61,896 nucleotides of DNA from Acidobacteria bacterium 13_1_20CM_2_55_15 (GCA_001920875.1 MNKP01000097.1:1-61896), one strand, 5' to 3'. Shown: positions 8,515-61,896, counted from the first letter of the stretch. Translations and numbers: made by a program. Notes: a model not told the origin generated them from the sequence alone.

Positions 8515-9768
8515 ATGCGTCCAGAGGGCAAGTATCTGCGCTCCATGATGCATATATTCTTGTCGTTGCTACTGCTATTATCGCTCTCGTTCAGCGGCAT
8601 CAGCCAGGTTCCAGAGGTTGTCGCCCCTACTTCTCTCTACGTGAATGTGACCGGAGGCAAAGAAATTATGGGGCTCACTCCGGCCCAGGTCCGCCATGCT
8701 TACGGATTGGATGACATTGCCAATCAAGGAGAAGGGCAGACGATTGGAATCGTCATGCCGCTTCATAATCCAACGATTAAAAGCGATGTAGATGTTTTCA
8801 GCGACAGGTTCGGTTTGCCGCGGTGTGCACCCGCGAACTGCGACTGGCTTGAAACACGCTTCTATCCGGAAGGCGTCGTTCCAGTGCCTGATGTTGCCTG
8901 TTCGTCTTCTTGTTTGCAGTTGTTTCAGTTGGAAAGTGCTCTCGATGTAGAGTGGGCACACGCGATCGCCCCCAAAGCGCGAATTGTATTAGTGGAAACC
9001 AGCCGTTTCGTTGCGGATCTGCTGGATGCCGGTGATGTAGCCATTGCCTCTGGAGCAAGTGTGATATCGATAAGTTGGGCCGTTCCGGAGAACGGCCGCT
9101 CCCAGGCAGACAGACTCGCTTTAAATTCAAGGTTCATTAAGCCGCACGTGGCGTTCGTCGCGGCTGCAGGCGACACCGGTAACTATTCGTGTCTGGGCGT
9201 TGCTTCTTTATGCTGGCCCGCAACTTCGTCTTACGTCACAGGAGTTGGTGGTACCACACTGAAACTCAACTCTCAAGGAGACTACATAACTGAAAATGCT
9301 TGGAAGGGCGGGGGAGGGGGCTTTAGCCTCTATGAGGACGTGCCAGATTACCAGAAACCGTTCCACCCTTATACAAAACGCGGAGTGCCGGACGTCTCCT
9401 ATCACGCGAATCCACAAACTGGATTTGCAGTTTACGATTCGAACCCCTATCTGGGCTCGACCGGCTGGCAAGAAGTCGGCGGAACTAGCGCTGGCGCACC
9501 GCAATGGGCGGCCCTGATGACGATCGCCAATTCCATCCGAAAGGCAGTAGCGCCCAGCAAAGCCACTCTGACCGGAAGTAACCCGCATCTCTACTCGATA
9601 GGAACCGGCCCAGCCTATGCCAGCAACTACCGCGACGTCTCTGCGGGGAACAACACCAACGGGCAATGCGGTCCCCTGTGTTCGGCAACCACGGGCTACG
9701 ACTTCGTAACCGGTCTCGGCAGCCCGAACGCGGCGAATCTCATTAACGCATTGTCGAGCCTACCGTAA
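8515..9768 (+). CDS. Secreted S53 (sedolisin/kumamolisin-like) serine peptidase lacking an obvious prodomain
   Basis: LESALDVEWAHAIAP block and the catalytic-Ser block GGTSAGAPQWAAL. Start moved to ATG 8515 (MRPEGKYLRSMMHIFLSLLLLLSLSFSG, signal-peptide-like). ATG 8545 is an alternative. Confidence 0.7.
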   Translation: MRPEGKYLRSMMHIFLSLLLLLSLSFSGISQVPEVVAPTSLYVNVTGGKEIMGLTPAQVRHAYGLDDIANQGEGQTIGIVMPLHNPTIKSDVDVFSDRFGLPRCAPANCDWLETRFYPEGVVPVPDVACSSSCLQLFQLESALDVEWAHAIAPKARIVLVETSRFVADLLDAGDVAIASGASVISISWAVPENGRSQADRLALNSRFIKPHVAFVAAAGDTGNYSCLGVASLCWPATSSYVTGVGGTTLKLNSQGDYITENAWKGGGGGFSLYEDVPDYQKPFHPYTKRGVPDVSYHANPQTGFAVYDSNPYLGSTGWQEVGGTSAGAPQWAALMTIANSIRKAVAPSKATLTGSNPHLYSIGTGPAYASNYRDVSAGNNTNGQCGPLCSATTGYDFVTGLGSPNAANLINALSSLP

Positions 9769-9808
9769 ACTAGACCTCTTCCGAACAACTCTATAGTATG
9801 GAAGGGAA

Positions 9809-12559
9809 ATGCGTCCTCCCGAATACCAGCGTCCTTTTGATGTCCGGTTCGCGAGGCGCTTTTTCGTGCGTTTCGGCGTCGTTGTCATTGCTTTAATCGC
9901 GGCCTTTCAATCAATCTCGTTCTATGTGGAGAGTCTGTGGTTTGCGAGCCTCGGCTTCGAACCGGTGTACTGGTATCGCCTGAAGGCAGAGGCAACTGTA
10001 TTCTTAATATTTGCTGTAGTGTCTGCCTTTGTCCTTTGGTTGCTCTTCCGGCTTGCAATGCCCCCGGGCGGATATTCGCGGCGTCCTTTTCTTCAATTCG
10101 GCCAAGAGGCTATCGTGATTCCAACCGCGGAAACGCTGAAGCGTTTGGCATCACCAGCCGCAGCGGTAATTGGCGTGTTCTTTGGTCTCTCATTCAGTTC
10201 CGATTGGAACACCTACGCGCTTTTCATAAACAGCGTACCTACGCCCTCGATGTCGGATCCGATCTTTGGCCGTCCGATATCCTTTTATCTATTCACTCTT
10301 CCAGTTCTGGAATCAGTGGCGGATTGGTTTCTTGCCATCAGTGTGATTGGCATCCTTGCCGCCATATTGCTGTCGGTCACGGATATGAGCGCCCGCTTTA
10401 AGGGTGTATCAATAGCTCTCGGCATCTTGCTGGCGGCGATTGCGCTCCAAACCTACATTAGCCGGTTTTCGCTGCTTTTCGAGGAAGACAGTTTGTTTTC
10501 GGGCGTCCGGTACGTCGACGCCAACATCGTGATTCCCGGGTTGTGGTTCGTCACCGCGGCGCTACTGCTCGGGGCCGCCATCGCGCTGGGCAATTCACGC
10601 GCCGGGCGGATTCGTAATTTGGGTGTGGCCATTGCGGTGCCTGCATTGACATATCTTGTGGCAGGCGGCCTTGCGCCATTTTACGTAAGGACCTTCGTCG
10701 TGCGTCCGAATGAACTCGTCCGGGAGCGGCCGTACATAAAAAACAATATTGAATTCACACGTAAAGCTTTTGCACTTGATCGTATCGAAGAGATCCCATT
10801 CGAACCTCGATTGACGAATGCGGTCTTTGATCCCGCCGCACATCCCGAAACCCTTGACAACCTCCGCCTGTGGGATTGGCACGCGCTGAAGGCGACATTG
10901 CAGCAGATACAAGAGATCCGAACCTATTACGATTTTCCCGACATTGACGTCGATCGATACCTCGTCGCCAACAAGCAGCAGGCCGTGATGCTCGCGGCAC
11001 GCGAGTTAAGCCTGACCAAGCTACCGTCCGGGTCTCAAAATTGGGTGAACGAGAGGCTAATTTATACACATGGCTACGGCGTGACTATGAATCCGGTAAG
11101 CCGTTTTACCAGGGAGGGGCTGCCGGAGTTCATTTTGTCGAACATGCCCGTCGAAAGTACCCAGCCCGATATTCGCGTCACCCGCCCTGAAATCTATTTT
11201 GGCGAACTTACGGATTGGCCTGTCTATGTGAAGACTCGCCAGAAGGAATTCAATTATCCGGAAGGCGATGCCAACAACTACTCCGTTTACGAAGGTACGG
11301 GTGGAATCCGCATGGGGTCGCTGTTCCGTCGCTTATTGATCGCGTGGACCATCGGCGACATCGCCAAGGTTCCGTTCGCCGACGATATCACCCCAGAAAG
11401 TGTCCTTCTGATGCGCCGCAACATTCGGCAGCGAGTCTCGGAGCTGGCACCTTTCCTACTGCTCGACCAAGACCCTTATCTCGTAATCGGGGCAGACGGA
11501 AGGCTCTATTGGATTATGGATGGTTTTACGACTTCCACGCGCTATCCCTACGCACGACACTTGAATATCGGAAGCCGTTCCCTGAACTACATTCGCAATA
11601 GCATTAAAACGGTAATTGACGCTTACGATGGTTCGGTCCACTTCTATGTATTCGATGAAAGCGACCCGTTGATCCAGTCTTATCGAAAAATGTTTCCGGT
11701 TCTTTTTGCGAATGCCAGCGACATGCCGGATTTTCTTCGAAGACATGTGCGATATCCGGAACTGCTGTTTCGTGCTCAGGCTGCCATTTACTCGACTTAC
11801 CACGTCGAAAACGAACAGGTCTTCTATAACAGAGAAGACGTCTGGACCATTGCGCAACAGGGGCGGGGACAACAAGGACAGGGCACTGCCGACACTATCG
11901 AACCATTCTTTGTGCTCATGCGTTTTCCAGGCGAAAGGGAGCAGGAATTTGTCTCGATCCTTCCATTCACGCCCGCGAATCGGAACAATTTAATAGGGTG
12001 GATGGCCGGCCGGAGCGACGGCGACAAATATGGAACTCTGCGAACTTACCGTTTTCCCAAAACGCGATTCGTCGATGGGCCTTTGCAGGTTCAAGCCCGA
12101 ATCGATCAGGATCCGCAGCTCTCGTCGCAGCTGACTCTCTGGAACCAACAGGGCTCGACTGTCATTCGCGGCAACTTGCTCGTTATCCCGCTCGAAGACA
12201 CATTGTTGTTCGCCGAACCGATCTATTTGCAGGCTGAGCGAAGCCCGATGCCAGAGCTTCGTCTCGTCGTCCTCGCCACACAGGACCGTTTGGCGTACGC
12301 CACACGGTTTCCTGATGCGATGGCGCAGTTGCTGGAAGCCCGTACCGGCCCGGCTCCTGCACCCGCCCCTCCGACCGTCGCTGAAGCGCTCTCGCCACCG
12401 CGATCGACCGACTTACGATCGCTCATCGATCGCGCCAATCAGGCTCTGAACGAGTACCGCCGTCTGACTTCCGAGGGAAAGCTGGGCGAAGCCGGCGCAA
12501 AGTTGGAAGATCTGAAAAACATTTTGCAAGAACTAAATCGGTCGACTTCCTTAAAGTAA
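9809..12559 (+). CDS. UPF0182 family large membrane protein
   Basis: 916 aa. Several N-terminal TM-like segments are followed by a large soluble region with IYTHGYGV, EFNYPEGDANNYSVYEGTGG and LIGWMAG blocks, remembered from UPF0182 (COG1615). Confidence 0.7.
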   Translation: MRPPEYQRPFDVRFARRFFVRFGVVVIALIAAFQSISFYVESLWFASLGFEPVYWYRLKAEATVFLIFAVVSAFVLWLLFRLAMPPGGYSRRPFLQFGQEAIVIPTAETLKRLASPAAAVIGVFFGLSFSSDWNTYALFINSVPTPSMSDPIFGRPISFYLFTLPVLESVADWFLAISVIGILAAILLSVTDMSARFKGVSIALGILLAAIALQTYISRFSLLFEEDSLFSGVRYVDANIVIPGLWFVTAALLLGAAIALGNSRAGRIRNLGVAIAVPALTYLVAGGLAPFYVRTFVVRPNELVRERPYIKNNIEFTRKAFALDRIEEIPFEPRLTNAVFDPAAHPETLDNLRLWDWHALKATLQQIQEIRTYYDFPDIDVDRYLVANKQQAVMLAARELSLTKLPSGSQNWVNERLIYTHGYGVTMNPVSRFTREGLPEFILSNMPVESTQPDIRVTRPEIYFGELTDWPVYVKTRQKEFNYPEGDANNYSVYEGTGGIRMGSLFRRLLIAWTIGDIAKVPFADDITPESVLLMRRNIRQRVSELAPFLLLDQDPYLVIGADGRLYWIMDGFTTSTRYPYARHLNIGSRSLNYIRNSIKTVIDAYDGSVHFYVFDESDPLIQSYRKMFPVLFANASDMPDFLRRHVRYPELLFRAQAAIYSTYHVENEQVFYNREDVWTIAQQGRGQQGQGTADTIEPFFVLMRFPGEREQEFVSILPFTPANRNNLIGWMAGRSDGDKYGTLRTYRFPKTRFVDGPLQVQARIDQDPQLSSQLTLWNQQGSTVIRGNLLVIPLEDTLLFAEPIYLQAERSPMPELRLVVLATQDRLAYATRFPDAMAQLLEARTGPAPAPAPPTVAEALSPPRSTDLRSLIDRANQALNEYRRLTSEGKLGEAGAKLEDLKNILQELNRSTSLK

Positions 12560-43980: not shown

Positions 43981-44040
43981 GGATTACGTCGACTCCACGG
44001 GACGGTCTCGTGGAGTCGACATTATCCATAGCGGGACTTG
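43981..44040. repeat. Palindromic element family F5, copy 1 (core GTCGACTCCACG-n9-CGTGGAGTCGAC)
   Basis: Read directly. ~85% identical over ~60 bp to 44590-44650. The right arm supplies the last codons and stop of the DUF488 gene. Confidence 0.8.
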
Positions 44041-44564
44041 AAAAGGTTAGGATACGTGAGCGTCGTTCCTTCCGCCTTCACAAATTTGGTGAATGTGTGC
44101 TCCTCGATCTTTGTTGCAGTGAAGATGTGACCGACGCGATAGCCGCGAGCTAAGAGCGCATCCGATACGAGCTGGCGATGGCAACGCCAGAACACCGCTT
44201 CGGTACAGCAATAGACTGTGGTCTTTTCCTGCAGAAGCCGGATTAGTTCCTTGAGTGCTGCCTCGAATTCCTGTGTTTGCATGTAGTCCGCATAGCCGCG
44301 GAATGCATCATTTCTCCATGCCGCATTCAGAGCCGAATCCTTGCGCGGCTTGCGCAAACCGCCGAGAGCTTTCAAGTGAACATATTCGATTCCGGCTCGT
44401 GGAAGCGCCACCTGCAGATGTTCAAGATTGAATTGCGGTGTGTGCCTCGAGCCCGGCAGTGTGCGAATATCCGCAAGCCGCCCGATCTTGTAACCTGACA
44501 GAATCGCGATGGTCTCCTCCCATGTCCGGTTCGAGAAACCCATGGAATAAACGTCGAACTTCAT
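44022..44564 (-). CDS. DUF488 family protein
   Basis: VYSMGFSNRTWEETIAIL, LADIRTLPGSRHTPQFN, YVHLKALGG and YCCTEAVFWRCHR are typical DUF488 blocks. ATG 44564 (TTG 44567 in the track). Confidence 0.75.
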   Translation of the reverse strand: MKFDVYSMGFSNRTWEETIAILSGYKIGRLADIRTLPGSRHTPQFNLEHLQVALPRAGIEYVHLKALGGLRKPRKDSALNAAWRNDAFRGYADYMQTQEFEAALKELIRLLQEKTTVYCCTEAVFWRCHRQLVSDALLARGYRVGHIFTATKIEEHTFTKFVKAEGTTLTYPNLFKSRYG

Positions 44565-44578
44565 CAATGCCGCTTTTC

Positions 44579-44650
44579 AAGTCCCGCTGAGGGATGATGC
44601 TGACTCCACGGGACGGCCCCGCGGAGTCGACATCATCCTTAGCGGGACTT
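44579..44650. repeat. Palindromic element family F5, copy 2 (~72-bp imperfect palindrome)
   Basis: The left arm AAGTCCCGCTGAGGGATGATGCTGACTCCACGGG pairs with the right arm CCCGCGGAGTCGACATCATCCTTAGCGGGACTT. The right arm supplies the last codons and stop of the 49-aa gene. Confidence 0.85.
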
Positions 44651-44788
44651 ATAAAACTGAACCGCTCGTTCGTGCTTCTCTGCCGCTTCACGAGTCTTGA
44701 ACGTACCAAGATTTCGCCGTTTGCCTGTCTTGGGGTCCTTCTTGCGCGAATAAAGCCGAAACTCCCCGGATGCAAGTTTACGGATCAT
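44639..44788 (-). CDS. 49-aa basic protein with AP2-like beta-sheet/helix signature
   Basis: MIRKLASGEFRLYSRKKDPKTGKRRNLGTFKTREAAEKHERAVQFYKSR. The GK..LGTF.T.E.A pattern recalls AP2/integrase-type DNA-binding domains. Start set to ATG 44788 because the upstream SDR gene ends at 44818. Confidence 0.5.
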   Translation of the reverse strand: MIRKLASGEFRLYSRKKDPKTGKRRNLGTFKTREAAEKHERAVQFYKSR

Positions 44789-44817
44789 AAAAAACTCCGA
44801 TTCGTTTTCTCTTTTTA

Positions 44818-45651
44818 TTATCGCGCCAATTTCACAGACTCTTCCCACAGCCGTTTCGCCGCATCCTCGTCTTGCGCTTCTATCGACGAGGTTTTCGGGC
44901 GGCATTGATAGAAGTACTGGCCCGTCGTTCCGGCGACTTCTTTCGCGGATGCGAGAAATACCATGGTCTCGGCGCCTTTTTCGGGGGAGATGGCGAATTT
45001 CTTAGCAATCCGGAAGAGGAGGGATAGCGGTCCTTTGCTTTCGTCGCCAAAGCGGGTATTCACGAACCCGGGATGAAGGCAATTGACGGTGACGCCCGTG
45101 CCGCTCAACTGCCGCGCCAGTTCGCGCGTGAACAAAATATTGCATAGCTTCGAGCGTCCGTACGCGCGGAAGGCCTGGTAGCTACGGGATCCGTGCAGGT
45201 CGCCGAGGTCGATTTTCATCCCCCGGTGCGCTTCCGAAGACGTGTTGATCACACGAGCGGGAGCGGACGCGAGCAGACGCTCGCGCAATCGTTCGGTTAC
45301 TACAAAATACGACATGTGATTGGTGGCGAACGTACGCTCCAATCCTTCGCCGGTCAGTTCCCGTTTGCCGAATAACGCCCCAGCGTTATTGATCAAGACA
45401 TCGATCCGCCGTTCCGCGGCCGCAATTTCGTTCCCCACGCGCTTCATTTCCTTAACGAGCGAGAGGTCCGCGTAGTAGACGCGGTGATCAATTCCGGGCG
45501 CCGTCTCACGCAATCGCTTCAACGTTGCTTCTCCGCGAGTTCGATTGCGAGCGATGACGAGCATGCGCGCGCCCATGGCGGCCAGTTTCTCCGCAGCTAT
45601 CGCACCAATGCCCGACGTGGCTCCGGTAATAACCACAACCTTGTCCTGCAT
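44818..45651 (-). CDS. Short-chain dehydrogenase/reductase (SDR)
   Basis: VVITGATSGIGAIAA (TGxxxGxG), NNAG and YGRSK (YxxxK). Confidence 0.9.
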   Translation of the reverse strand: MQDKVVVITGATSGIGAIAAEKLAAMGARMLVIARNRTRGEATLKRLRETAPGIDHRVYYADLSLVKEMKRVGNEIAAAERRIDVLINNAGALFGKRELTGEGLERTFATNHMSYFVVTERLRERLLASAPARVINTSSEAHRGMKIDLGDLHGSRSYQAFRAYGRSKLCNILFTRELARQLSGTGVTVNCLHPGFVNTRFGDESKGPLSLLFRIAKKFAISPEKGAETMVFLASAKEVAGTTGQYFYQCRPKTSSIEAQDEDAAKRLWEESVKLAR

Positions 45652-45686
45652 ATGATCATTCTACTAATACTCACTCGATCGGTTCT

Positions 45687-46040
45687 TCAGCCCTCCCCTG
45701 CCCGTTGAGTGGAATCAACCGGCAGGGGGAGATGGCTGGATCTACGTGCAGATCCGTTTTGGCCGCTGTTGTCGCCCGGAACGATGGCACGAATGGACTC
45801 CGACAACGGTTTAACCGGAGTACGTATCGTGGTGACCGGCTGGAAACCACTCTTGAGGAACGTGGTCATATCATCCTTGCAATTGTGCTCGACATAATTG
45901 GCAAGTTGACGCAAGGACCTGGCAGCTTCCATCTAGAACTTGGAGCCTTGGAAACGCCGCAGGAAGCCTTCCATCTCCAATTCCAATCCGGAAAATGTGG
46001 AGGAAGTCGACGATGAAGCTTTGGTGGATCTCTTTATCAG
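45687..46040 (-). pseudogene. Possible remnant of a conserved hypothetical (fibronectin-III-associated N-terminal domain) gene, interrupted by an in-frame TAG
   Basis: The frame reads ...LELEMEGFLRRFQGSKF*MEAARSLRQLANYVEHNCKDDMTTFLKSGFQPV...PGDNSGQ. The LRQLA.YVE....D....L.SGF segment resembles a family I recall. It is truncated at both ends. Confidence 0.25.
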
Positions 46041-46131
46041 CACACTCATATCGTCCGAATGCACTAGATTTCTTGACAAATTTCAGCAATACAGACATAA
46101 CGTTTGCCGCGCACCAGCAACTGAAATCGCT

Positions 46132-46154
46132 CCCTCTCCCCTTTTGGGAGAGGG
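46132..46154. repeat. Palindrome CCCTCTCCC-ctttt-GGGAGAGGG (repeat family F2)
   Basis: Read directly, immediately upstream of the receptor N-terminal remnant. Confidence 0.7.
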
Positions 46155-46168
46155 CCGCGAAGGGTGTC

Positions 46169-47065
46169 ATGTGCAAGGGGACAAATCTATGCCTGCTGCT
46201 GAACTGGACCGGGTTGATTGTGTTGGGAAGCTGTTTGGCTTTTGGTCAGGGGGCGACGGCCGCCCTTTCCGGTATCGTACGCGCTAGCACCAGGCGCAGT
46301 CGTGCGTGGAGCCACTATCACCGCCAAGCATCTCGAAAGTGGTCCAATGCTCTGTCCCGCAGTGCTACGAGTAGCGAAAACGGTGGCTACAATGTGCAGT
46401 TGCTTCCGGTCGGCGCCTATGAAATCACGACAGACATGCCGGGCTTCAAACAGCAAGTGCGGCGTGGAATCAATCTGGTCGTCGGTCGGGAAGCCGTCGT
46501 GAATCTGACGCTTGAAGTCGGAGCGGCTGCAGAGTTAGTCACAGTGACGGACGAAGCACCGATCGTGAACACGACATTAAGTTCGACGTCCGGACTGATC
46601 AACGAGACCCAGATCAAAGGACTACCGTTGAATGGGCGCAGCTTTGATCAGCTTTTGACGCTGAACGTGGGCACTGTCGATAACCGTTCGAATGTCAGCA
46701 ACAACGCCTGGACGTCTTTCTCGGTTGCGGAAAAGAGGCCCGAGACCAACCGATTTCTCATGAACGGCGGCGACTATCCGGGCTCCAACTCGGGCGGTAC
46801 CTACATTACGCCCTCCGGCTCCAGTGGGCAATTGCTTGGAGTCGAAGCTGTACGGGAATACAACGTTCTGCAGCACACTATAGCGCAGAGTATGGAAAAC
46901 GGGCCGGTGCCCAGGTCACCGTTGTGTCGTCTTCGGGGTCGAACCAGTTGCATGGCGATTTGTTTGAGTACATGCGCAACAGCTCTTTGGACGCCCGCAA
47001 CTTTTTCGAAGATGCCAAGGGTCCCTTCCACCGCAATCAATTTCGGAGGATACCTGGGAGGTTAG
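46169..47065 (+). pseudogene. TonB-dependent receptor N-terminal remnant (signal peptide, CarboxypepD_reg-like domain, plug), multiply frameshifted and truncated
   Basis: Family-typical sequence hops between frames. AFGQGATAALSGIVR is in frame a; PGAVVRGATITAKHLESG is in frame b (46290-46343). SRSATSSENGGYNVQLLPVGAYEITTDMPGFK...IKGLPLNGRSF is back in frame a. YSAEYGKRAGAQVTVVSSSGSNQLHGDLFEYMRNSSLDARNFF...NQF is in frame c. GGYLGG then runs into a stop. Nothing barrel-like follows. Confidence 0.7.
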
Positions 47066-47104
47066 TTCGCGTTGAAATTGCTGTTTTGATACTTGCTGGT
47101 CGGA

Positions 47105-47185
47105 GGAATAAAATGGCCACGAAAAGGCACAAAAGCATCGCAATGCCTTTGGCGAATTTTGTGCTTTTTTGTGGCAGTTCCCCTT
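47105..47185. repeat. Repeat family F1 copy (GGCCACGAAAAGGCACAAAA ... TTTTGTGCTTTTTTGTGGCA)
   Basis: Read directly. Arms at 47115-47134 and 47157-47176. Located 16 nt upstream of the 47201 start codon. Confidence 0.8.
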
Positions 47186-47200
47186 TTTAGGAGCGTAGAT

Positions 47201-48034
47201 ATGAAGAAATTCTTCGTCATCTCAATGACACTGATAATGCTGATCCTGGTGCTGCCGGTGCAATCGCAAGCTCAGGACCGGGTGCGATCCGTGAATGTGG
47301 GCGGCACTCCTCTGGTTCCAGACAACCTTGTGAACGGCCCCGTGCCGCGGCTGCCCGACGGCAAGCCGGATCTGACCGGCCCGTGGATGGGTGGCGGCTC
47401 GAATGCCGACATCGAGCGTGAAGGCGGACTGAAACCCGGCGAGCTTCCCTTATTACCCTGGGCGAAAGAACTCCGGGATAAACGCAAGGAGGAGGACGAG
47501 CCGTATACGGCCTGTTTGCCGATGAGTATCCCGCGAGTCAACCCCTACCCGTGGAAGTTCGCAATGTCGTACACGTCGAAGGGGCTGACGTACATCTACA
47601 TCCTGCACGAGACCGGGGACGCCGGCGCGCATCGCGTGGTCTACATGGATGGCCGCAAGCATCCGGACGATCTTCTTCCGACTTGGTGGGGCCACTCGAT
47701 TGGGTCGTGGGAGGGCGACACGCTCGTCATCGACACCGTTGGCTATAACGACAAGTTCTGGTTCGATAGTCGCGGCACCCCGCACACCGGGAAACTCCAC
47801 ACGATCGAACGATGGACCCGGATCAACTATGGAACACTCGTCAACGATTTCACGCTTGATGATCCTGGTGCCTTTTCGAAACCGGTTCATCTGAAGTTTA
47901 CAGCGAAGCTGATGCGCCCAGACCTCGACTTGATGGAGTTCATATGCTTGGAAAACAATCAGGTCGGCCAGGCAGGGGGTTACGTGCCGGGAACCGGTAC
48001 GAGTAATACGGTTGATCCGAAGACTAATAAATGA
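47201..48034 (+). CDS. Secreted conserved hypothetical protein (277 aa)
   Basis: AGGAG 9 nt upstream of ATG 47201. Signal peptide MKKFFVISMTLIMLILVLPVQSQA. Distinctive WEGDTLVIDTVGYNDKFWFDSRGTPHTGKLHTIERW block. No family name recalled. Confidence 0.7.
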   Translation: MKKFFVISMTLIMLILVLPVQSQAQDRVRSVNVGGTPLVPDNLVNGPVPRLPDGKPDLTGPWMGGGSNADIEREGGLKPGELPLLPWAKELRDKRKEEDEPYTACLPMSIPRVNPYPWKFAMSYTSKGLTYIYILHETGDAGAHRVVYMDGRKHPDDLLPTWWGHSIGSWEGDTLVIDTVGYNDKFWFDSRGTPHTGKLHTIERWTRINYGTLVNDFTLDDPGAFSKPVHLKFTAKLMRPDLDLMEFICLENNQVGQAGGYVPGTGTSNTVDPKTNK

Positions 48035-48056
48035 CTGACGTTCAGGAGGTGTTGCC

Positions 48057-48473
48057 ATGAAAAACAAACTCGGGCTCATGATCGCTGGAATCAGCTTTTT
48101 CTGTTTCACGATGCCGGCCATCGCCCATCATGGATTCGATACGGAATATGACGCGAATAAGAAAGTCAAATTAACCGGCGTGGTGACGAAGATCGAATGG
48201 CTCAATCCGCATATGCGCGTCTACATCGATGTCACCGATGCCAAGGGTAACGTGGCCAATTGGAACCTGGAATTGACCAGTCCCAATACCGTACGGCGGC
48301 AGGGCTGGGGCCCGAAAGATCTCCTGCCTGGAGAGAAGGTGGTCTTTGAAGCATACGGCGGCAAGGTTATCGAAACGAGGGGCGCGTTGGCGAGAATTGC
48401 CAAGGTCGAGAATCCGGACAAACCGCTCTTTATTGCAGGTGGACCTGAGCAGCCGGGCTTTCCTAAGCAGTAG
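48057..48473 (+). CDS. DUF6152-like secreted protein
   Basis: Signal peptide ending AIA, then HHGFDTEYDANKKVKLTGVVTKIEWLNPHMRVYIDV, which is the DUF6152 pattern as I recall it. 22 nt after the previous gene. Confidence 0.65.
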   Translation: MKNKLGLMIAGISFFCFTMPAIAHHGFDTEYDANKKVKLTGVVTKIEWLNPHMRVYIDVTDAKGNVANWNLELTSPNTVRRQGWGPKDLLPGEKVVFEAYGGKVIETRGALARIAKVENPDKPLFIAGGPEQPGFPKQ

Positions 48474-48482
48474 CTCGCAAAC

Positions 48483-49613
48483 ATGACAACAATCACTGTG
48501 TTGCTGCTTGGCCTGGCGATGGCGGCAGGGCAAGCTGGGCCGGGTCAGGTTGCGCCCGGCCGATCCGGATCCGAGCAGAATTCACAGCTTTCGGAGACTG
48601 TCTTCAAGAACGTTAAAGTCCTTAAAGGCATTCCTGTTGACGAGTTCATGGACACGATGGGAATGTTTGCATCCTCCCTCGGTTACGACTGCAGCAGTTG
48701 CCACTCCCCGGAAATCCGCACCAATCGCGAGGCGTTCGCCGTCGAAACTCCGCTGGTTCAGAGGGCGCGAGGCATGATTACGATGATGAATGCCATCAAC
48801 CGTAACTACTTCCGCGGCGAACCGCACGTATCGTGCTTCACCTGCCACCGCGGCAACTACAACCCTGAGATCATTCCGAGCCTGGCTCTGCAGTACGGCG
48901 AGCTCAAAGAGGATCCCAACTCGACCAATATTTATCCCGATCGAAAGGTAACGGCGGATCAGGTGTTTGAAAGATATTTTCAGGCACTCGGCGGAAGGGA
49001 CCGGTTGGCCGGCTTGACCTCGTTCGTCGCCACAGGAACCTACTCCGGGTTCAATACGGGCGGGGCAGATGTCCCTGTAGAAATCTATGCCCGCGCGCCC
49101 GACCAGCGGACCCAGATCATTCACATGGATATTGGAGACGGGGTCAAGACCTACGATGGCCGGAATGGCTGGGTTGCGGAAGAATGGAGACCGGTGCCGC
49201 TCGTCAGACTGACAGGAGGCAACTTGACCGGAGCGCGCCTGGATGCAATGATATCCTTCCCTGCAGGCATCCAGAAATCGTTCAGCGACTGGAAAGTCGG
49301 CAGCACCGTCATCGACGACCGTCCGGTTCAGATCTTACAGGGATCTAACCCCGGAGAAACTCCTGTTAACCTCTACTTCGATGAATCCGGGCTATTAGTC
49401 CGACTGGTGCGCTGGAACAAAACAACCGTTGGTACCGTCCCGACACAGATCGATTACTCGGAATACCGCGAAATGGCCAGCGTCAAACTGCCTTTCCGCA
49501 TCGTTATGACTTGGACCGACGGCCAGAACACGTTTACTTTTAAAGAGATCCGGCCGAACGCCGTAATCGGCCCCGAGAAGTTCGTCCAGCCCGCTCCGTT
49601 CAAACGCCGGTAG
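48483..49613 (+). CDS. Dihaem c-type cytochrome (reaction-centre cytochrome-c-subunit-like N-terminus) fused to a LolA-like domain
   Basis: FKNVKVLKGIPVDEFMDTMGMFASSLGYDCSSCH and VSCFTCH give two CxxCH motifs. The C-terminal ~230 aa are paralogous to 61174-61896 (YFQALGGRDRLAGL vs YLKTLGGDAGLAKL; IDYSEYRE vs IDYSDFRN). Confidence 0.8.
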   Translation: MTTITVLLLGLAMAAGQAGPGQVAPGRSGSEQNSQLSETVFKNVKVLKGIPVDEFMDTMGMFASSLGYDCSSCHSPEIRTNREAFAVETPLVQRARGMITMMNAINRNYFRGEPHVSCFTCHRGNYNPEIIPSLALQYGELKEDPNSTNIYPDRKVTADQVFERYFQALGGRDRLAGLTSFVATGTYSGFNTGGADVPVEIYARAPDQRTQIIHMDIGDGVKTYDGRNGWVAEEWRPVPLVRLTGGNLTGARLDAMISFPAGIQKSFSDWKVGSTVIDDRPVQILQGSNPGETPVNLYFDESGLLVRLVRWNKTTVGTVPTQIDYSEYREMASVKLPFRIVMTWTDGQNTFTFKEIRPNAVIGPEKFVQPAPFKRR

Positions 49614-49627
49614 CCTGGGTGTACAAC

Positions 49628-49792
49628 GCCGCTTCCGCCGCAGAAGCCTTAGCTTTTCAATTCCAACGTTGCTTTTGCCGAAGCAGTGTTGGCTTCTGAT
49701 TTTCAACACTGCTTTTGCCGTGGCAGTGTTAACTTTTCAATTCCAACGCTGCTTTTGCCGTAACAGCATTAGCTTTCCATTTCCAAAGCTAC
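49628..49792. repeat. Tandem array of 40-bp hairpin units (4-5 copies), terminator-like, downstream of the cytochrome gene
   Basis: The motif GCTTTTGCCG recurs at 49671, 49711 and 49751, with variants at 49631 and 49791 (exact 40-bp phase). Stems: CCAACGTTGC/GCAGTGTTGG (49663-49692, two G:U pairs) and AACACTGC/GCAGTGTT (49705-49730). Each is followed by a T-rich tract. Confidence 0.9.
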
Positions 49793-49993
49793 CTCTTCGG
49801 CAGGGATCGGAAAAGCGGCACAGGAAAACGAGCTTTTTTATGTTTTTCGGCTTTCGCATCGAAAAAGTTGTATTTTTCGACGCCTCTAAACGATCTAAAC
49901 GTTTGAAGGGCGAAAAATCCTTTTCAGCTGGGCTGCATGGAGGCTAGCCGCTCCGGCAGCCCTTCTCACTTTTGAGAAAGGTTTGAAATACAA

Positions 49994-50230
49994 ATGAAGA
50001 ATATTGATGACATCACCTTCGAATCCTGGCAGTTGCGGGTCCCTGGTGTGCTCGACCAACTTCTGGAATGCGACTGGTGCGGCTATGAGATTGAAGGAGA
50101 CGAATTGGTCAAGACGCTGAAAGGCCCGATGCATTGGTCCTGCTGGCAGGACGCCGAAGAGCGCGGATCCTATAAGACAGCGGTTAGAGAGACGCCATGG
50201 CCATTGGAGGCAGTCGCTACCAAACCGTGA
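49994..50230 (+). CDS. Hypothetical 78-aa protein with CxxC...HxxC zinc-ribbon-like spacing
   Basis: ORF only: ECDWCGYE ... GPMHWSCW. More protein-like than the overlapping antisense ORF 49895-50266. Confidence 0.35.
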   Translation: MKNIDDITFESWQLRVPGVLDQLLECDWCGYEIEGDELVKTLKGPMHWSCWQDAEERGSYKTAVRETPWPLEAVATKP

Positions 50231-50650
50231 CGCGTTTAGCCGGAGCGAGGAACATTTTATCGCCATCCTTAATACGAAGGCGTCGAAGAAAGCATTCTGA
50301 TTCTTTACAGGCGCGACGCCGCGAACCGAAGGCGGTGAATGCGGATCGACCTTGATCCGGCAGATCTGTTCGTACTCGCGGGATTTGCCCCGCTACACCT
50401 GAGCCCATCCCATAAGAAATCTTTGATCGCCGGTGAAACGTTCGATCAGGCCATTTCGAAAAGGTATACTTCGGTTCGAATCACCTGTCCCTCGTAAGCC
50501 ACCTTCGTTGCTATTTCGAGTGGCTGTGAAACGTCATCCGGCCCAAACGATGTAAGTGGACCTCGTGGTTTCGCGTGGTTACCGGCAGGCATTCAAGGGC
50601 CGGTGATTTCTGCATTGGCTCGCAGGCGACTTGTGCTATTGTTGCCCGCC

Positions 50651-52267
50651 ATGTGGCAACAAACCTACACACCAATCGCGAATAGTCTCGCTTTGTCCGC
50701 TCTTGTGGCGGCAGTGCCGATCTTTGTTCTGCTGTTTATGATAGGTATCCGGCGCAAGCCCGCCTGGATCGCTTCGCTTTCGGGTCTGGCGGCGACGGTC
50801 ATCCTCGCGGCAGTGGTTTATGGGATGCCTGCGGGGATGCTCTTCTCGTCTGTTTTATTCGGGGCGGCATTTGGACTCTTTCCCATCGGCTGGGTCGTGT
50901 TCTCCGCGATTTTGCTCTATCGCGTGATGCAAGAGAGCGGCAAATTTAATACGCTGAAAGACTCCATCGGTCATCTCACCGACGACGGCCGTCTACAAAT
51001 GATGCTTGTGGCGTTCGCGTTCGGTGCATTTATTGAAGGTTGCGCCGGATTTGGAACTCCGGTGGCGGTCGCCGCCACAATGCTGACCGGTCTCGGATTT
51101 TCACCGTTCTTATCCGCAGCGGTCTGTTTGTTAGCCAACACGGCGCCCGTGGCATTTGGATCGATCGGAACGCCCATCCTCACCCTCAGAGCGACTACCG
51201 GACTTCCTTTAGATCGTCTGAGCGCAGGTGTCGGCCGGATCTGCGCGCCGGTTTCCTTGTTCATTCCGGCCTACATGATTGCGGTGGTGTGCGGCTGGTC
51301 GGGCTTGCGCGCCGTATTGCCTGCCGCGGCTGTATGCGGGATCGCATTTGGCGGGACGCAATTCCTTGTTTCGAATTTCGTCGGTCCCGAGCTCACCGAT
51401 ATCCTGGCTTCGATGGCGGCTATGGGAGGACTCTTTGTACTTGTAAAATTCTGGAAACCGCGCGACAGATTTGACTTCGGCCATCTACCTCCGAGCAAAG
51501 TCATTCACAAGGGACGTGATCTCGCCGTTGCCTGGGCGCCCTACATGATCCTTGTGGTGCTGGTGCTGCTGTGGGGATATCCGCCGGTCAAAGCTCGGTT
51601 GGATTCATTCACCATCCCCATCAATTGGCCCGGGCTGCACAATCTCATTCAACGAATGCCGCCTGTCGTCGCACAGCCATCCAACTATGGAGCGGTTTTC
51701 GCCTTCAGCTGGCTTTCCGCGTCGGGCACGGCGTGTCTGATCACGGCCATTCTTGGGGCCGCCGTTGTGGGCTTGAGTCCAGGGCGGTTCGCTCGTGTGT
51801 TTGGACAGACCGTAAAGCAACTGGCGCTGGCCGAACTGACGCTGGCAGCCGTGCTCGCTCTCGCCTATGTGATGAACTACTCAGGTGCGACCGCGACCTT
51901 AGGTCTCGCTTTTGCGGGCACGGGCGTGCTGTTTCCGATGTTCAGCTCAGTGCTTGGTTCCTTGGGAGTTTTCCTTACCGGAAGCGACACGTCTGCGAAT
52001 GCGCTGTTTGGCACACTGCAAACCGTGACGGCCACAAAACTCGGTATGAATCCGATCCTGATGGCTTCAGGAAACTCTGCCGGCGGCGTGATGGGAAAGA
52101 TGATCAGCCTGACCAGCATTGCCGTTGCCGCTGCCGCAACGACAATGAAGCGGGAAGATGAAAGCCGGCTCTTTGGGTTTACGCTCAAGCACAGCATCTT
52201 TCTCACCTTCATCATCGGGCTGGTGGTGATGTTTTATACGTATGTGGCCCCGCAACTCGCACCGTGA
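50651..52267 (+). CDS. lctP: L-lactate permease (LctP/LldP family)
   Basis: MWQQTYTPIANSLALSALVAAVPI start, FIEGCAGFGTPVAV, and GSLGVFLTGSDTSANALFG and SGNSAGGVMGKMIS blocks. Start set to ATG 50651. Confidence 0.9.
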   Translation: MWQQTYTPIANSLALSALVAAVPIFVLLFMIGIRRKPAWIASLSGLAATVILAAVVYGMPAGMLFSSVLFGAAFGLFPIGWVVFSAILLYRVMQESGKFNTLKDSIGHLTDDGRLQMMLVAFAFGAFIEGCAGFGTPVAVAATMLTGLGFSPFLSAAVCLLANTAPVAFGSIGTPILTLRATTGLPLDRLSAGVGRICAPVSLFIPAYMIAVVCGWSGLRAVLPAAAVCGIAFGGTQFLVSNFVGPELTDILASMAAMGGLFVLVKFWKPRDRFDFGHLPPSKVIHKGRDLAVAWAPYMILVVLVLLWGYPPVKARLDSFTIPINWPGLHNLIQRMPPVVAQPSNYGAVFAFSWLSASGTACLITAILGAAVVGLSPGRFARVFGQTVKQLALAELTLAAVLALAYVMNYSGATATLGLAFAGTGVLFPMFSSVLGSLGVFLTGSDTSANALFGTLQTVTATKLGMNPILMASGNSAGGVMGKMISLTSIAVAAAATTMKREDESRLFGFTLKHSIFLTFIIGLVVMFYTYVAPQLAP

Positions 52268-52280
52268 GCCGCGCGCGTGT

Positions 52281-52614
52281 TTAAGCTGCAAGATCCTCCG
52301 CCCAATAGACTTCTTCGGCTCCTGAAGATTTGAAGACCCGAAACGCTCGGTCGAGCCGCGCAGGCTCATCCGACCCGACTGCAATCAGGATCGCGCCGGC
52401 TCCAATTTTCTGCTCGACTCGGGCCCTGTCGTGTTCTGGAATCCCGATGCGGGCCAGTGCGCCCGTGCCGCCGGCCAGCCCGCCGATAACACCACCGACC
52501 GCAGCTCTGCTGAAAGCCCCGATTATTGGGCCGGCGACTGCCAGAGGTCCGAGTATGGGAGATATCGTTGGCCTGAGGTTCGGTTGAAGCGATGCAATAC
52601 ACGGTATTTTTCAT
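52281..52614 (-). pseudogene. Glycine-zipper stress-protein-like small gene with a frame disruption
   Basis: GGAGGA sits 5 nt before ATG 52614 (MKNTVYCIASTEPQANDI). All family-like sequence (PILGPLAVAGPIIGAF..VGGVIGGLAGGTGALARIGIPEHDRARVEQKIGAGAILIAVGSDEP...SGAEEV, stop 52281) is in the +1 frame, which has no ATG/GTG/TTG of its own. The span is 334 nt, not a multiple of 3. Confidence 0.5.
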
Positions 52615-52651
52615 AAATCCTCCATTGGAAATTGCATCATCGGAAAAGAAC

Positions 52652-52677
52652 TGTAGCGGCGGGCTATGACCGCCGAC
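52652..52677. repeat. Repeat family F4 copy (TGTAGCGGCGG-gctatga-CCGCCGAC)
   Basis: Read directly. A related half-site GAGCGCCGCTACAGC lies at ~52746-52760, and the perfect copy is at 53031-53055. Confidence 0.6.
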
Positions 52678-52790
52678 GATCTGTAACTTCCTGGAGTGTC
52701 GGCGCTCAATTTTTGAGGCTGCGCGCTATCGCGCTTGCGCTTCGCGGAGCGCCGCTACAGCTGTGCAATCTCCAATAGGTTCCGAAAACC

Positions 52791-52958
52791 CTAGGTTCCG
52801 GTCTCTCTTTCCTCTCCGCCAATGTAGTCTTCAGGAGACGACTGAAACTCCTCCTTGCAATCCGTGTTGCAGAAATAATAAGTCGTGCCTTGGTGCGTCG
52901 CCTTGTCCTTGGTGGTACGTTCGTCGACTTCCATGCCACAGACTGGGTCGATAGCCAT
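52791..52958 (-). CDS. YHS-domain mini-protein (55 aa), below the ORF-track cutoff
   Basis: AAGGAG 7 nt upstream of ATG 52958. MAIDPVCGMEVDERTTKDKATHQGTTYYFCNTDCKEEFQSSPEDYIGGEERETGT carries the DPVCGM...YYFC...C YHS/TRASH-type pattern. Confidence 0.7.
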   Translation of the reverse strand: MAIDPVCGMEVDERTTKDKATHQGTTYYFCNTDCKEEFQSSPEDYIGGEERETGT

Positions 52959-53030
52959 TGGTCAACTCCTTACATTTTGGGTTTTGATACTTTTAAGTGG
53001 AGCAATCGTGGGGCCGTTAAGGCGGCGCTC

Positions 53031-53055
53031 TAGCGGCGGTCACAGACCGCCGCTA
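53031..53055. repeat. Perfect palindrome TAGCGGCGGTC-aca-GACCGCCGCTA (repeat family F4)
   Basis: Read directly, between the DsbA-like gene stop and the YHS gene start. Confidence 0.8.
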
Positions 53056-53089
53056 CAATAATCAGGAACTAAGGGACGGGAAATTTTTC

Positions 53090-54157
53090 TTACTTGGCTG
53101 TTTGGCTCCCCTGCAGTTCGTCGTCGATGATTTCCTTAATCTCTGAATACGGCTGATTTCCGGAAAGCATACGGCCGTTGATGAAAAGCGCTGGCGTGCC
53201 GCTAACACCCGATCGCGCGCCCTCCTGAAGGTCACTTTGGATCGCGGCAACTTGTCGTCCCGAATCCAAACATTCGTTGAACTTAGCCATATCCAGCTTG
53301 AGATCCACCGCGCGCTGTTTGAGATCGGCAACACTGAGTTCCCTCTGATTCCCGAACATGGAGTCGTGAAATTCCCAGAAATGCTGCTGCTCGTTGGCGC
53401 ACAACGCAGCTTCCGCGGCTTTCTCCGCATGAGGGTGAATGTTCGTGAGCGGGAATTGCCGAAAGACAATCCGAATTTTCTCCGCGTAGTTCTTCTCGAT
53501 TTGCTTCAACGTCGGATATAGCCCGCCACAGAATGGGCATTCAAAATCCGAAAATTCCACGATTGTTACGGCCGCTGTTGCCGGCCCTCTGGATGGAAAT
53601 CCCGCCGTCTCGATTTTTGCGCGCAGCGGTTCCAGATACGATTTGAACCCGTACTGTTTTTTCAGGCGCGCGATCAGCGCATCGTGATATCGGCTGCGGC
53701 TTCGCTCGATCAAGTACTGCTTCACTTGCGGAAGCGCTTGCTCTTTGGGAATGGGAATCCGGTCTTTGTTCGCGTTGTAGAAGCCTTCGACATCGCTATC
53801 CGAAGGAGTTTCAACGTTGCTGTTGACTTCGGCATCCAGCAGTTGCTCCTTCGACATGTTCAGCTTTTTGGCTTCGGCCTCGATCAGCTTGTCGGCAACA
53901 AGCTGTTCCAGCGCTCTTGTCAAGACTTGTTGTTTGTCCTGCGCCAGTGTTGCGTCATTTTGAAGCCGCTTTGTTTCGAGACTCCTGAGATCGTTGGCTG
54001 CCGCCTTATCCAATTCTTCTTGCGTTATGGTTTGACCGTTAACGACGGCCGCTCGATTCGCACTCGATTGCGCAAAAGCCACGGTTGCAAGCGCCGCGAA
54101 CGCTGTTAAGATCAAGGCTCGATGTAATTTCACACGGAACTCCTGCGTAGAATCCAT
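53090..54157 (-). CDS. Secreted DsbA-family thiol:disulfide oxidoreductase with SurA-N-like chaperone N-terminal region
   Basis: Signal-like N-terminus. The C-terminal thioredoxin fold has VEFSDFECPFCGG (CPFC active site) and GVSGTPALFING. Confidence 0.8.
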   Translation of the reverse strand: MDSTQEFRVKLHRALILTAFAALATVAFAQSSANRAAVVNGQTITQEELDKAAANDLRSLETKRLQNDATLAQDKQQVLTRALEQLVADKLIEAEAKKLNMSKEQLLDAEVNSNVETPSDSDVEGFYNANKDRIPIPKEQALPQVKQYLIERSRSRYHDALIARLKKQYGFKSYLEPLRAKIETAGFPSRGPATAAVTIVEFSDFECPFCGGLYPTLKQIEKNYAEKIRIVFRQFPLTNIHPHAEKAAEAALCANEQQHFWEFHDSMFGNQRELSVADLKQRAVDLKLDMAKFNECLDSGRQVAAIQSDLQEGARSGVSGTPALFINGRMLSGNQPYSEIKEIIDDELQGSQTAK

Positions 54158-61173: not shown

Positions 61174-61896
61174 TTAGTTCGATCTACTTGTCGGCTTTGC
61201 GAACCGCGTGTCTTCCACGGCTACGTTCTGTTGGACTGAATCCACTTTGACTGTCTGATAGCCAAGTGGCCGTGCGATGATCCAACTGAATGGGAACGGG
61301 GTGCCTTGCACATTGCGGAAATCGGAGTAATCAATGCGCACTACGTTTTGTCCGATGACGTTTGGCAGAAGGAAAACAACCCGGAGCAAGTTACCCGATT
61401 TCGGATGGAAGAAGAGCCGTACCGGGACGCGGCCAAATGCCGTTCCGCGAAGTTGATAAACTTCCTGATTATCGAGCCTGACGCGCCTGGTCTCCAAGTT
61501 GGAGATGGACTTCAGATTCCTGGCCAGGTAAAGAGGATCCTGCAGCCTCAACGTGTCGAACTCGTCCTCCCGCGCCTCACGAACGGCGCCGTTGGCCGCA
61601 CGCTGCCAGGCGGTGTTGCCGGTGTGGCCGACAATGACGTCTCCGCCATCTGCATGGGTGATGGATAAGCTGTTATCTCCCTTGCTAACCATCTCCATGT
61701 TGGCAGTGTTGCCAATGCTGTTTGTCGCGGCGTACTTCACGACTCGGCTTTGGAGTTTTGCCAGTCCTGCGTCTCCGCCCAGCGTCTTCAGATAATTGTC
61801 CATAAGTTGGCTGGCCGGCGGCCCCGGTATCGGAGCCAGGTCCGGAGCTCCGTTGGGGCTGTCGGGCGTCCAAGGCTTGTAATTTGCCGTTGCCAG
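61174..61896 (-). CDS. Partial (5'-truncated by window edge) paralogue of the LolA-like C-terminal domain of the 48483 cytochrome
   Basis: The frame stays open to the window end (…PGPPASQLMDNYLKTLGGDAGLAKL…). Collinear similarity to residues ~150-376 of the 48483-49613 product. Confidence 0.6.
   Translation of the reverse strand: MATANYKPWTPDSPNGAPDLAPIPGPPASQLMDNYLKTLGGDAGLAKLQSRVVKYAATNSIGNTANMEMVSKGDNSLSITHADGGDVIVGHTGNTAWQRAANGAVREAREDEFDTLRLQDPLYLARNLKSISNLETRRVRLDNQEVYQLRGTAFGRVPVRLFFHPKSGNLLRVVFLLPNVIGQNVVRIDYSDFRNVQGTPFPFSWIIARPLGYQTVKVDSVQQNVAVEDTRFAKPTSRSN

Follow-up and report, generated by a model that had tools for sequence, protein, structure and literature searches.

Organization and transcription of the locus

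The window analysed here is the whole of a 61,896-nucleotide (nt) contig from Acidobacteria bacterium 13_1_20CM_2_55_15 (GCA_001920875.1, MNKP01000097.1:1-61896), and it carries a tight group of three co-directional genes for exported proteins. Gene 1 (B) belongs to an unnamed family, gene 2 (O) encodes a DUF6152 protein whose mature form is predicted to begin with His-His, and gene 3 (C) joins a dihaem c-type cytochrome to a second domain. The three genes are transcribed in soil, and their repeated proximity in this and other genomes supports a functional link between them. On what we judge to be an even balance, the trio may be one expressed copy of a modular periplasmic metal/haem redox system. 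The host genome amounts to 3.44 Mb in 211 contigs, of which the 62-kb contig of the trio is one, and is 82% complete with 3,109 called genes.

The spacing of the genes is exactly 22 nt between genes 1 and 2 and 9 nt between genes 2 and 3, and the coordinates, gaps and shared direction given in the initial annotation of the locus all proved exact (Table 1). A Shine-Dalgarno sequence precedes genes 1 and 2, while no ribosome-binding site is visible at the start of gene 3, which lies 9 nt past the gene 2 stop. The ATG of gene 1 sits within a longer TTG-started frame. All three products have a hydrophobic leader ending in a small-x-small cleavage site, read by eye as VQSQA/QD, AIA/HH and AGQA/GP for genes 1 to 3 (the stroke marking the cut), in line with the signal peptide previously assigned to each.

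Transcription is evident from four soil metatranscriptomes of study P8, the DNA runs of which also carry this sequence. RNA contigs at 99-100% identity cover gene 1 from position 47459, all of gene 2, and gene 3 up to 49629, and three of them (48287-48487, 48338-48498, and 48390-48540) bridge the junction between genes 2 and 3. No RNA contig was found at 45812-47113 or 49664-49824 in any of the four runs. Across 19.5 kb, RNA contig depth ranges from 0 to above 100, an unevenness expected of RNA rather than of DNA contamination. Since contig depth reflects expression level poorly, the claim is limited to two points: the trio is transcribed in soil, and genes 2 and 3 share a transcript.

Table 1. 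Coordinates of the trio, its flanking elements and related genes (window positions unless a contig of the same genome is named).
Feature	Position	Strand	Remarks
Gene 1 (B)	47201-48034	+	277 aa; ATG start; unnamed family; modelled calycin/FABP-like beta-barrel
Gene 2 (O)	48057-48473	+	138 aa; exported DUF6152 protein; modelled OB fold
Gene 3 (C), whole	48483-49613	+	376 aa
Gene 3, N-terminal part	48483-48902	+	signal peptide and dihaem c-type cytochrome domain
Gene 3, C-terminal part	48903-49613	+	~235-aa domain, weakly related to DUF6544, LolA_like, DUF6920 and DUF4292
Shine-Dalgarno AGGAG of gene 1	47189-47193	+	7 nt before ATG; read from sequence
Shine-Dalgarno GGAGG of gene 2	48045-48049	+	7 nt before ATG; read from sequence
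Hairpin F1	47105-47185	+	stem ~19 bp; fold z -3.7; between TonB-dependent receptor remnant and gene 1
Tandem hairpin array	49624-49790	+	40-nt unit x 4.2; directly past gene 3 stop; Tandem Repeats Finder score 173
C-terminal-domain paralogue	61177-61896	-	tblastn 27% identity over 238 aa, E 2e-14; N-terminus lost at contig end
C-terminal domain + metallo-beta-lactamase fusions	C58 4302-5864; C54 9135-10709; C161 7536-9068; C200 4588-6168; C124 1-1407		
DUF2214-like membrane proteins near DUF6152 genes	C66 2071-3138; C151 4697-5653; C202 10039-10974		recalls CopC/CopD-type pairs

A predicted N-terminal His-His motif on a modelled OB fold

Gene 2 scores 88 bits with the PF19649 (DUF6152) profile, the cut-off of which is 27, over profile positions 4-93 of 98, so that the resemblance to DUF6152 noted earlier is secure. 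The only invariant polar residues of this family follow a simple pattern, in which a signal peptide is followed by HH and then by NPH. Gene 2 shows this pattern as H24-H25, directly after AIA, and N50-P51-H52. Among the 36 DUF6152 paralogues of the genome, H25, G41, P51, H52, G83, and G92 are invariant, and H24 is present in 35. In DUF6152 proteins from the loci of other genomes, HH follows a signal-peptidase-type site in 88 of 88 cases, bringing the overall count to 123 of 124. The residue at -1 in these 88 proteins is A, G or T, that at -3 is V, L or A in 79, the third mature residue is G, S or A, and the first His is separated from the His of NPH by a spacing of 28 in 79 of 87. His as residue 1 of mature O is thus predicted both by the -3/-1 rule and by family conservation, and what had been proposed for a single protein emerges as a family-wide rule. 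The HH/NPH pattern is the signature of a site that requires a free N-terminus, which agrees with the observation that DUF6152 is always the first domain in fusions.

The AlphaFold2 model of gene 2 has a predicted local distance difference test (pLDDT) score of 85, with residues 21-30 at only 77. The best 50 matches to its fold in the PDB are proteins or domains with an oligonucleotide/oligosaccharide-binding (OB) fold, such as SSB, Rim1, PriB, and IF1, and neither a lytic polysaccharide monooxygenase (LPMO) nor CopC is among these 50. A search of PDB sequences with the gene 2 family profile returned nothing at E values up to 1, leaving the family with no solved relative. The initial annotation had likened the predicted N-terminal His to the histidine brace of LPMOs and CopC-type proteins. 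Since gene 2 is modelled as an OB fold, and not as the Ig/FnIII-like or cupredoxin-like beta-sandwich of those families, membership of O in either is rejected. The invariance of the His-His pair and His52 points to a candidate transition-metal site on an OB fold, with copper as a first guess. In histidine-brace copper proteins (LPMO families AA9-AA17, CopC, and PmoB CuB), a second His side chain completes a three-nitrogen, T-shaped site, and in O the invariant H52 is the candidate for this place. A full-text literature search found no paper that names DUF6152 and none that combines 'histidine brace' with 'OB-fold'.

A dihaem cytochrome of the reaction-centre type

The two haem motifs of gene 3 are C70SSCH74 and C118FTCH122, and residues 28-131 match PF02276 (CytoC_RC) at 46.2 bits (cut-off 22.4, E 5e-12, profile positions 40-142 of 310), which confirms the reaction-centre-cytochrome-like N-terminus with two CxxCH motifs that had been described. 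A profile built from seven gene-3 paralogues finds the PufC chains in the PDB at E 5e-22, aligned across one two-haem unit. Both CxxCH motifs and the methionines upstream of them, M59 and M98, are invariant in the seven paralogues, and by analogy with PufC we take M59 and M98 to be candidate axial haem ligands. Against the NCBIfam model for PufC (NF040706), gene 3 scores 49.7 bits, below the cut-off of 150, and has two CxxCH motifs instead of four haem sites; against NF033196 (c_type_nonphoto) it reaches 65.9 bits over the full 98-position profile, just below the cut-off of 70.

By sequence, then, the N-terminus of gene 3 corresponds to half of a reaction-centre-type tetrahaem cytochrome. As in the PufC of purple-bacterial reaction centres, to one two-haem unit of which residues 28-131 are homologous, a Met-bearing helix is followed by CxxCH, and this pattern occurs twice. 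Gene 3 differs from PufC in having two haems rather than four, in carrying an additional ~235-aa domain, and in its genomic setting: the 82%-complete genome contains no match to the reaction-centre L and M subunits (PF00124, PufL/M). A photosynthetic role is rejected on the absence of these genes, and the names under which public records list the orthologues of gene 3 ('photosynthetic reaction center cytochrome c subunit' and 'outer membrane lipoprotein-sorting protein') are wrong in this context. Elsewhere in the genome, a 264-aa tetrahaem cytochrome (contig C114, 7913-8704) consists of two copies of the gene 3 N-terminal unit; on the side away from its dehydrogenase neighbour, described below, nothing is recognizable.

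The C-terminal domain is more difficult to place. Residues 277-353 match PF20181 (DUF6544) at 26-27 bits (cut-off 25), over only the last 80 of 221 profile positions, and a match to LolA_like (E 1.4e-5, 25.3 bits, below the cut-off of 30) is obtained only with a stand-alone paralogue on contig C126. Matches to DUF6544, LolA_like, DUF6920, and DUF4292 are all marginal, and in a sequence search of the PDB the cytochrome half has matches and the C-terminal domain has none. The fusion of the cytochrome to a domain of ~230 aa is real, and the label 'LolA-like' that had been attached to it is weak, with matches only at or below threshold. The recurrence of the domain near the contig end, also noted earlier, is borne out (Table 1). 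This second copy scores 249 bits against a family hidden Markov model (HMM), and has no match to the HMMs of the LolA/LolB-like families considered for the domain (PF17131, PF20181 DUF6544, and PF14125). Together with the C126 paralogue, it makes two stand-alone occurrences. In five exported proteins of the same genome, a domain of this kind is fused ahead of a metallo-beta-lactamase domain in which the HxHxDH motif is present. From these two settings, stand-alone and fused, the C-terminal domain behaves as a reusable binding or docking module.

An unnamed family of predicted beta-barrels

Gene 1 was initially described as having no nameable domain, and scans against Pfam and NCBIfam indeed gave zero matches. 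Its AlphaFold2 model (pLDDT 81) is an antiparallel beta-barrel preceded by short N-terminal helices, and the top fold matches in the PDB are all calycins, namely UnaG, SAHS, and CRABP2. These matches are weak, at E 2.6e-3 and worse, with template modelling scores of 0.55 (target) and 0.30-0.33 (query) and 10-15% identity. Gene 1 is accordingly described here only as modelling as a calycin/FABP-like barrel with an N-terminal helical extension. As modelled, it has the antiparallel barrel topology of the calycin superfamily (FABP/CRABP, UnaG, tardigrade SAHS, and lipocalins), from which it differs in being about twice as large, in its helical extension and in a conserved Cys pair, and with which it shares no common sequence family. 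In a 99-row alignment of the family, the most notable conserved positions, each with the fraction of rows that carry the residue, are D57 (0.83), W62 (0.83), C105 (0.88), R145 (0.85), W170 (0.87), E203 (0.87), D221 (0.91), and C249 (0.87), and C105 and C249 probably form one disulfide. The family is very large: a profile search of 1.84 billion proteins yielded 28,402 cluster representatives at 50% identity, for which there is no Pfam model.

Lineage-specific expansion of the three families

The trio was first regarded as a singular cassette, a view that the rest of the genome does not bear out, since the trio is one case among many in a massive expansion of paralogues. Iterated HMM searches of the 211 contigs identified 97 open reading frames (ORFs) of the gene-1 family, 36 DUF6152 genes, and seven full-length and one truncated gene-3-type proteins. 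These ~140 ORFs (97 + 36 + 8) correspond to ~4.5% of the 3,109 called genes, and most of the DUF6152 genes are adjoined by at least one gene-1 paralogue. Within the genus, and in several genomes of its GTDB family, DUF6152 is present in 45 to at least 112 copies, the figure of at least 112 belonging to G011, a closed 5.5-Mb genome, and sampled genomes from other families of the class have 0 or 1; the expansion of DUF6152 is lineage-specific.

In one protein of the genome (contig C170, 5929-6984), a signal peptide, an AHH-DUF6152 domain and a gene-1 domain follow one another in a single chain, and the same order is found at locus L031 of another genome. Of the long DUF6152 frames, 10 of 11 from high-GC genomes were rejected as fusions, as the gene proper, with an ordinary signal peptide and HH start, lies inside a frame that merely continues upstream through DNA free of stops. 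One frame in genome G150 (locus L111, contig C6, 2932-5754) encodes, in order, a signal peptide, AHH-DUF6152, three PAS domains, HisKA, HATPase, and a receiver domain. No membrane helix separates its DUF6152 part from the PAS domains, and for this reason it is treated as a possible artefact and not as evidence; it is either a real sensor fusion or a product of misassembly or frameshift.

Genomic linkage of the cytochrome to O and B

Each of the eight gene-3-type genes in the genome has a gene-1 or DUF6152 gene no more than 500 bp away, a proximity reached by 7.0% of random 1.13-kb segments (P ~6e-10 for eight of eight). When families among the 3,109 called genes were screened for enrichment within 2.5 kb of O and B genes, the gene 3 family ranked first, with eight of nine members near O or B (p 6e-8). 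Pyrroloquinoline quinone (PQQ) dehydrogenases were also enriched (9/15, p 2e-6), as were, further down, metallo-beta-lactamase-fold proteins (5/8), a DUF2214-like membrane protein (3/4), and NHL-repeat proteins (4/10).

The linkage extends to other Acidobacteriota. Among the 80 best loci with gene 3 relatives (45-84% identity), sampled from Vicinamibacterales, Terriglobia, and Bryobacterales, a DUF6152 or barrel gene lies within 500 bp at 56 and within 2 kb at 62. The order and orientation of the genes vary (B>O>C>, C>O>B>, C>O<B<, and O>B>C>), and the fact that closeness is kept while arrangement is not argues for selection on proximity. The B-O-C order of the present trio recurs at seven orthologous loci (L011, L013, L014, L017, L028, L037, and L044), and the NCBI locus tags of a gene 1 orthologue (DMG15_25145) and a gene 3 orthologue (DMG15_25155) leave room for a single gene between them. 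Taken together, these observations support a functional link between the three genes. The outcomes that would have refuted the initial annotation did not occur: the DUF6152 assignment, the predicted His at mature position 1 and the synteny in other genomes all hold, and neither gene 1 nor gene 3 falls into a family of established unrelated function.

A proposed modular periplasmic redox system and its alternatives

If the trio is part of a periplasmic metal/haem redox system, its components could work together as follows. O would be exported and cut after AIA, exposing a His-His pair that joins His52 as a transition-metal site on the OB fold, copper being the first metal to consider. B would be a disulfide-stabilized calycin barrel that holds a small organic ligand, substrate or cofactor, a role suggested by its fold only. 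C would serve as a soluble dihaem c-type cytochrome, the LolA-like domain of which docks a partner or a lipidic ligand, and would carry electrons, in either direction, between the respiratory chain and the O/B pair or, at other loci, PQQ dehydrogenases as well. The large sets of B and O paralogues may supply ligand diversity, with the small and uniform set of C proteins serving many of them. A periplasmic Cu/haem redox module had been hypothesized in the initial annotation; a redox module remains plausible and the haem motifs are present, with copper a first guess and the histidine brace conjectural.

There is precedent for the separate elements of such a system. In exported proteins, histidine at the N-terminus serves generally to chelate metals, as described in a study of families other than DUF6152 (PMC12537917). 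The metalloproteins found by signal strapping in that study, including the DUF4198 Ni protein, DUF6702, Ang-1, and Ang-2, resemble O in that a His directly after the signal peptide defines the family. Their folds are beta-sandwiches or others, neither a barrel nor a cytochrome accompanies them, and the paper mentions neither DUF6152 nor an OB fold. In bacterial LPMOs, c-type cytochrome domains reduce the His-brace copper, as in CjX183 of Cellvibrio Cbp2D (PMC8981238, likewise not concerned with DUF6152), so that these systems too combine an exported His-first protein with a haem electron-transfer domain. The likeness has limits. O is a ~115-aa predicted OB fold instead of an Ig/FnIII-like sandwich and is predicted to begin with His-His rather than a single His1, the cytochrome of gene 3 is a reaction-centre-type dihaem unit and not X183 or a cytochrome b, and the trio has no carbohydrate-binding modules or carbohydrate-active enzyme context. 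Fungal cellobiose dehydrogenase is another haem electron donor to LPMOs. The trio would be an undescribed variation on the theme of an N-terminal-histidine metalloprotein with a cytochrome, assembled from three uncharacterized families.

Several observations weigh against a redox system built in this way. No His, Met or free Cys column is found in more than 48% of the rows of the gene 1 alignment, so that B adds no obvious metal ligand. Of 150 Acidobacteriota genomes sampled, 13 carry more distant proteins with the same combination of dihaem and LolA-like C-terminal domain, and these 13 have no DUF6152; the gene-3-like and DUF6152 sets overlap in one genome only (G150). At the 12 examined loci of these distant proteins there is neither an O or B neighbour nor any common neighbour family. 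The cytochrome therefore does not depend on O. For the cytochrome family at large, an obligate tie to O is rejected; the linkage holds only in the subfamily at 45% identity or more. In addition, the O genes adjacent to C in this genome do not cluster on the O tree, where their 6 labelled tips need 5 changes, no fewer than shuffled labels would, which means that C and O have not co-diverged and that there is no dedicated O clade for cytochrome-adjacent genes. Many B genes adjoin a PQQ dehydrogenase or metallo-beta-lactamase-fold gene without any O. Finally, metal binding, ligand binding, electron transfer and protein contact are all inferred. With these points taken into account, the cytochrome looks like a generic partner that was recruited to many O/B pairs and not like a co-evolving subunit.

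The redox system can also be imagined in a more specific form, which we consider doubtful. O, B and C would then constitute a new class of split periplasmic metalloenzyme, in which a histidine-brace-like centre on the OB fold is inserted in or apposed to a substrate-holding calycin barrel and recharged by the dihaem cytochrome, the substrate being small and hydrophobic or aromatic. Were this the case, the tens to hundreds of O/B paralogues per genome would amount to a substrate-diversified oxidative toolkit of soil Acidobacteriota, with an expansion logic comparable to that of the P450 or SusC/D expansions. Even in its general form, a metal/haem redox system would extend the few known kinds of metal centre with an N-terminal histidine by one more scaffold, the OB fold, and would imply a large, unrecognized capacity for periplasmic redox reactions in the turnover of soil carbon. 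Acidobacteriota rank with the most abundant bacteria of soil, and the trio is transcribed in situ.

The main rival is that the genes support dehydrogenases. C would be the periplasmic electron acceptor of PQQ-dependent dehydrogenases, O would be an accessory and not the catalytic centre, and the B barrels and the LolA-like domain would ferry substrates or a lipidic redox cofactor, for example a quinone, to the enzymes. Quinoprotein methanol and ethanol dehydrogenases are known to work with a dedicated cytochrome c, as in the pairs MxaF/cytochrome cL and ExaA/cytochrome c550. As in those pairs, a periplasmic c-type cytochrome gene is found near PQQ dehydrogenases at several paralogous loci, although gene 3 is of another cytochrome family and has an extra domain. 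The enrichment described above, with nine of the 15 PQQ dehydrogenases no more than 2.5 kb from a B, O or C gene, is in favour of such a role, as are more intimate arrangements. Several PQQ dehydrogenases are 9-109 bp from a B gene without O, one is 16 bp from a C gene, the orthologous trios at L011 and L012 are flanked by PQQ dehydrogenases, and the tetrahaem cytochrome of contig C114 is followed by a PQQ dehydrogenase (8825-10555) and then by a barrel gene (10664-11449). On the other hand, none of the 15 dehydrogenases is on the 62-kb contig of the trio, so that the locus itself has no such enzyme, the O (36) and B (97) genes far outnumber the dehydrogenases (15), and the invariant His-His/His triad of O is left unexplained. 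We hold this rival to be of low probability, and both it and a periplasmic metal/haem redox system may be partly true. If only a supporting role for dehydrogenases is true, it would still explain how the numerous anchor-less PQQ dehydrogenases in these bacteria are connected to respiration.

Metal acquisition or trafficking is an unlikely explanation. O would be a capture protein similar to CopC, YcnI or the 'anglerases' that passes its ion to a membrane or barrel partner, with no redox catalysis and with the cytochrome co-regulated rather than a partner. The N-terminal His of O is conserved as it is in CopC, YcnI, DUF4198, DUF6702, and Ang-1/2 (PMC12537917), and O shares with the proteins of the CopC/CopD and YcnI/YcnJ copper pairs a small size, export and, at three other loci, a membrane-protein neighbour. 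Three of the four DUF2214-like polytopic membrane proteins have an O gene at a distance of 100-730 bp. Genes for TonB-dependent receptors often lie nearby as well, and the remnant of one is directly upstream of the trio. O differs from the copper proteins in its fold and in its 36 to more than 100 paralogues per genome, which is far above any known metal-uptake system. No CopD-like polytopic membrane protein is encoded at 44000-53000, so that the trio has no membrane partner, and the constant partner of O is a calycin barrel instead of a CopD protein. The tight and repeated linkage to a haem protein would also be left unexplained.

A role for O as an inhibitor, with its free N-terminus plugging the metal site of a partner hydrolase in the manner of TIMPs, is very improbable. 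In its favour, the metallo-beta-lactamase-fold proteins enriched near O/B genes (5/8) would provide candidate targets, five other proteins encoded in the genome combine the gene 3 C-terminal domain with a metallo-beta-lactamase domain, and the fold matches of gene 2 include an OB-fold inhibitor of metallopeptidases, potempin A (8b2n_B; rank 17, E 6.6e-3, 22% identity). Against it, dozens of OB folds unrelated to potempin A match at least as well, the internal histidine of NPH, which is invariant, suggests that O has a metal site of its own, and the cytochrome is given no role.

Flanking repeats and other elements of the window

The repeat elements reported on both sides of the trio are present, and both fold better than shuffled sequences. 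On the upstream side, the arms of hairpin F1 recur on 13 contigs of the genome. F1 is a dispersed element, similar to repetitive extragenic palindromic (REP) sequences or to a terminator; only 2-3 of its 16 copies are near O/B genes, and a function as a module-specific mobile end is rejected. The region immediately before it (46190-47091) is the remnant of a TonB-dependent receptor gene, with 55% identity to residues 14-311 of the 1,115-residue paralogue C102_10414_13758. It contains one frameshift near 46880, has no RNA contigs, and is truncated exactly at the start of F1, which places the trio at an old rearrangement boundary.

On the downstream side, the tandem hairpin array folds better than all 200 shuffles (z -4.4) and contains a terminator-like match at 49663-49692. 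The final RNA contig on gene 3 stops at 49629, and the array is the probable end of the transcript. The only other copy of the 40-nt hairpin unit (contig C44, 9251-9299) is ~330 bp upstream of a gene-1 paralogue (C44 9628-10419). A scan of 46900-53200 against Rfam gave no family at threshold.

Two further regions of the window stand out in the RNA data. Between the hairpin array and a lactate permease gene, RNA contigs from three of the four runs map to 49859-50308, where only a 78-aa ORF (49994-50230, + strand) is present. At 52322-52972, which contains no tRNA and no Rfam family, and especially at 52713-52746, RNA contig depth is 26-128, as compared to 1-3 at the neighbouring genes. Much of this depth comes from a 34-nt GC-rich palindromic piece, GCGCGCTATCGCGCTTGCGCTTCGCGGAGCGC, that is joined to many different flanks and is probably a short element common to other transcripts or organisms.

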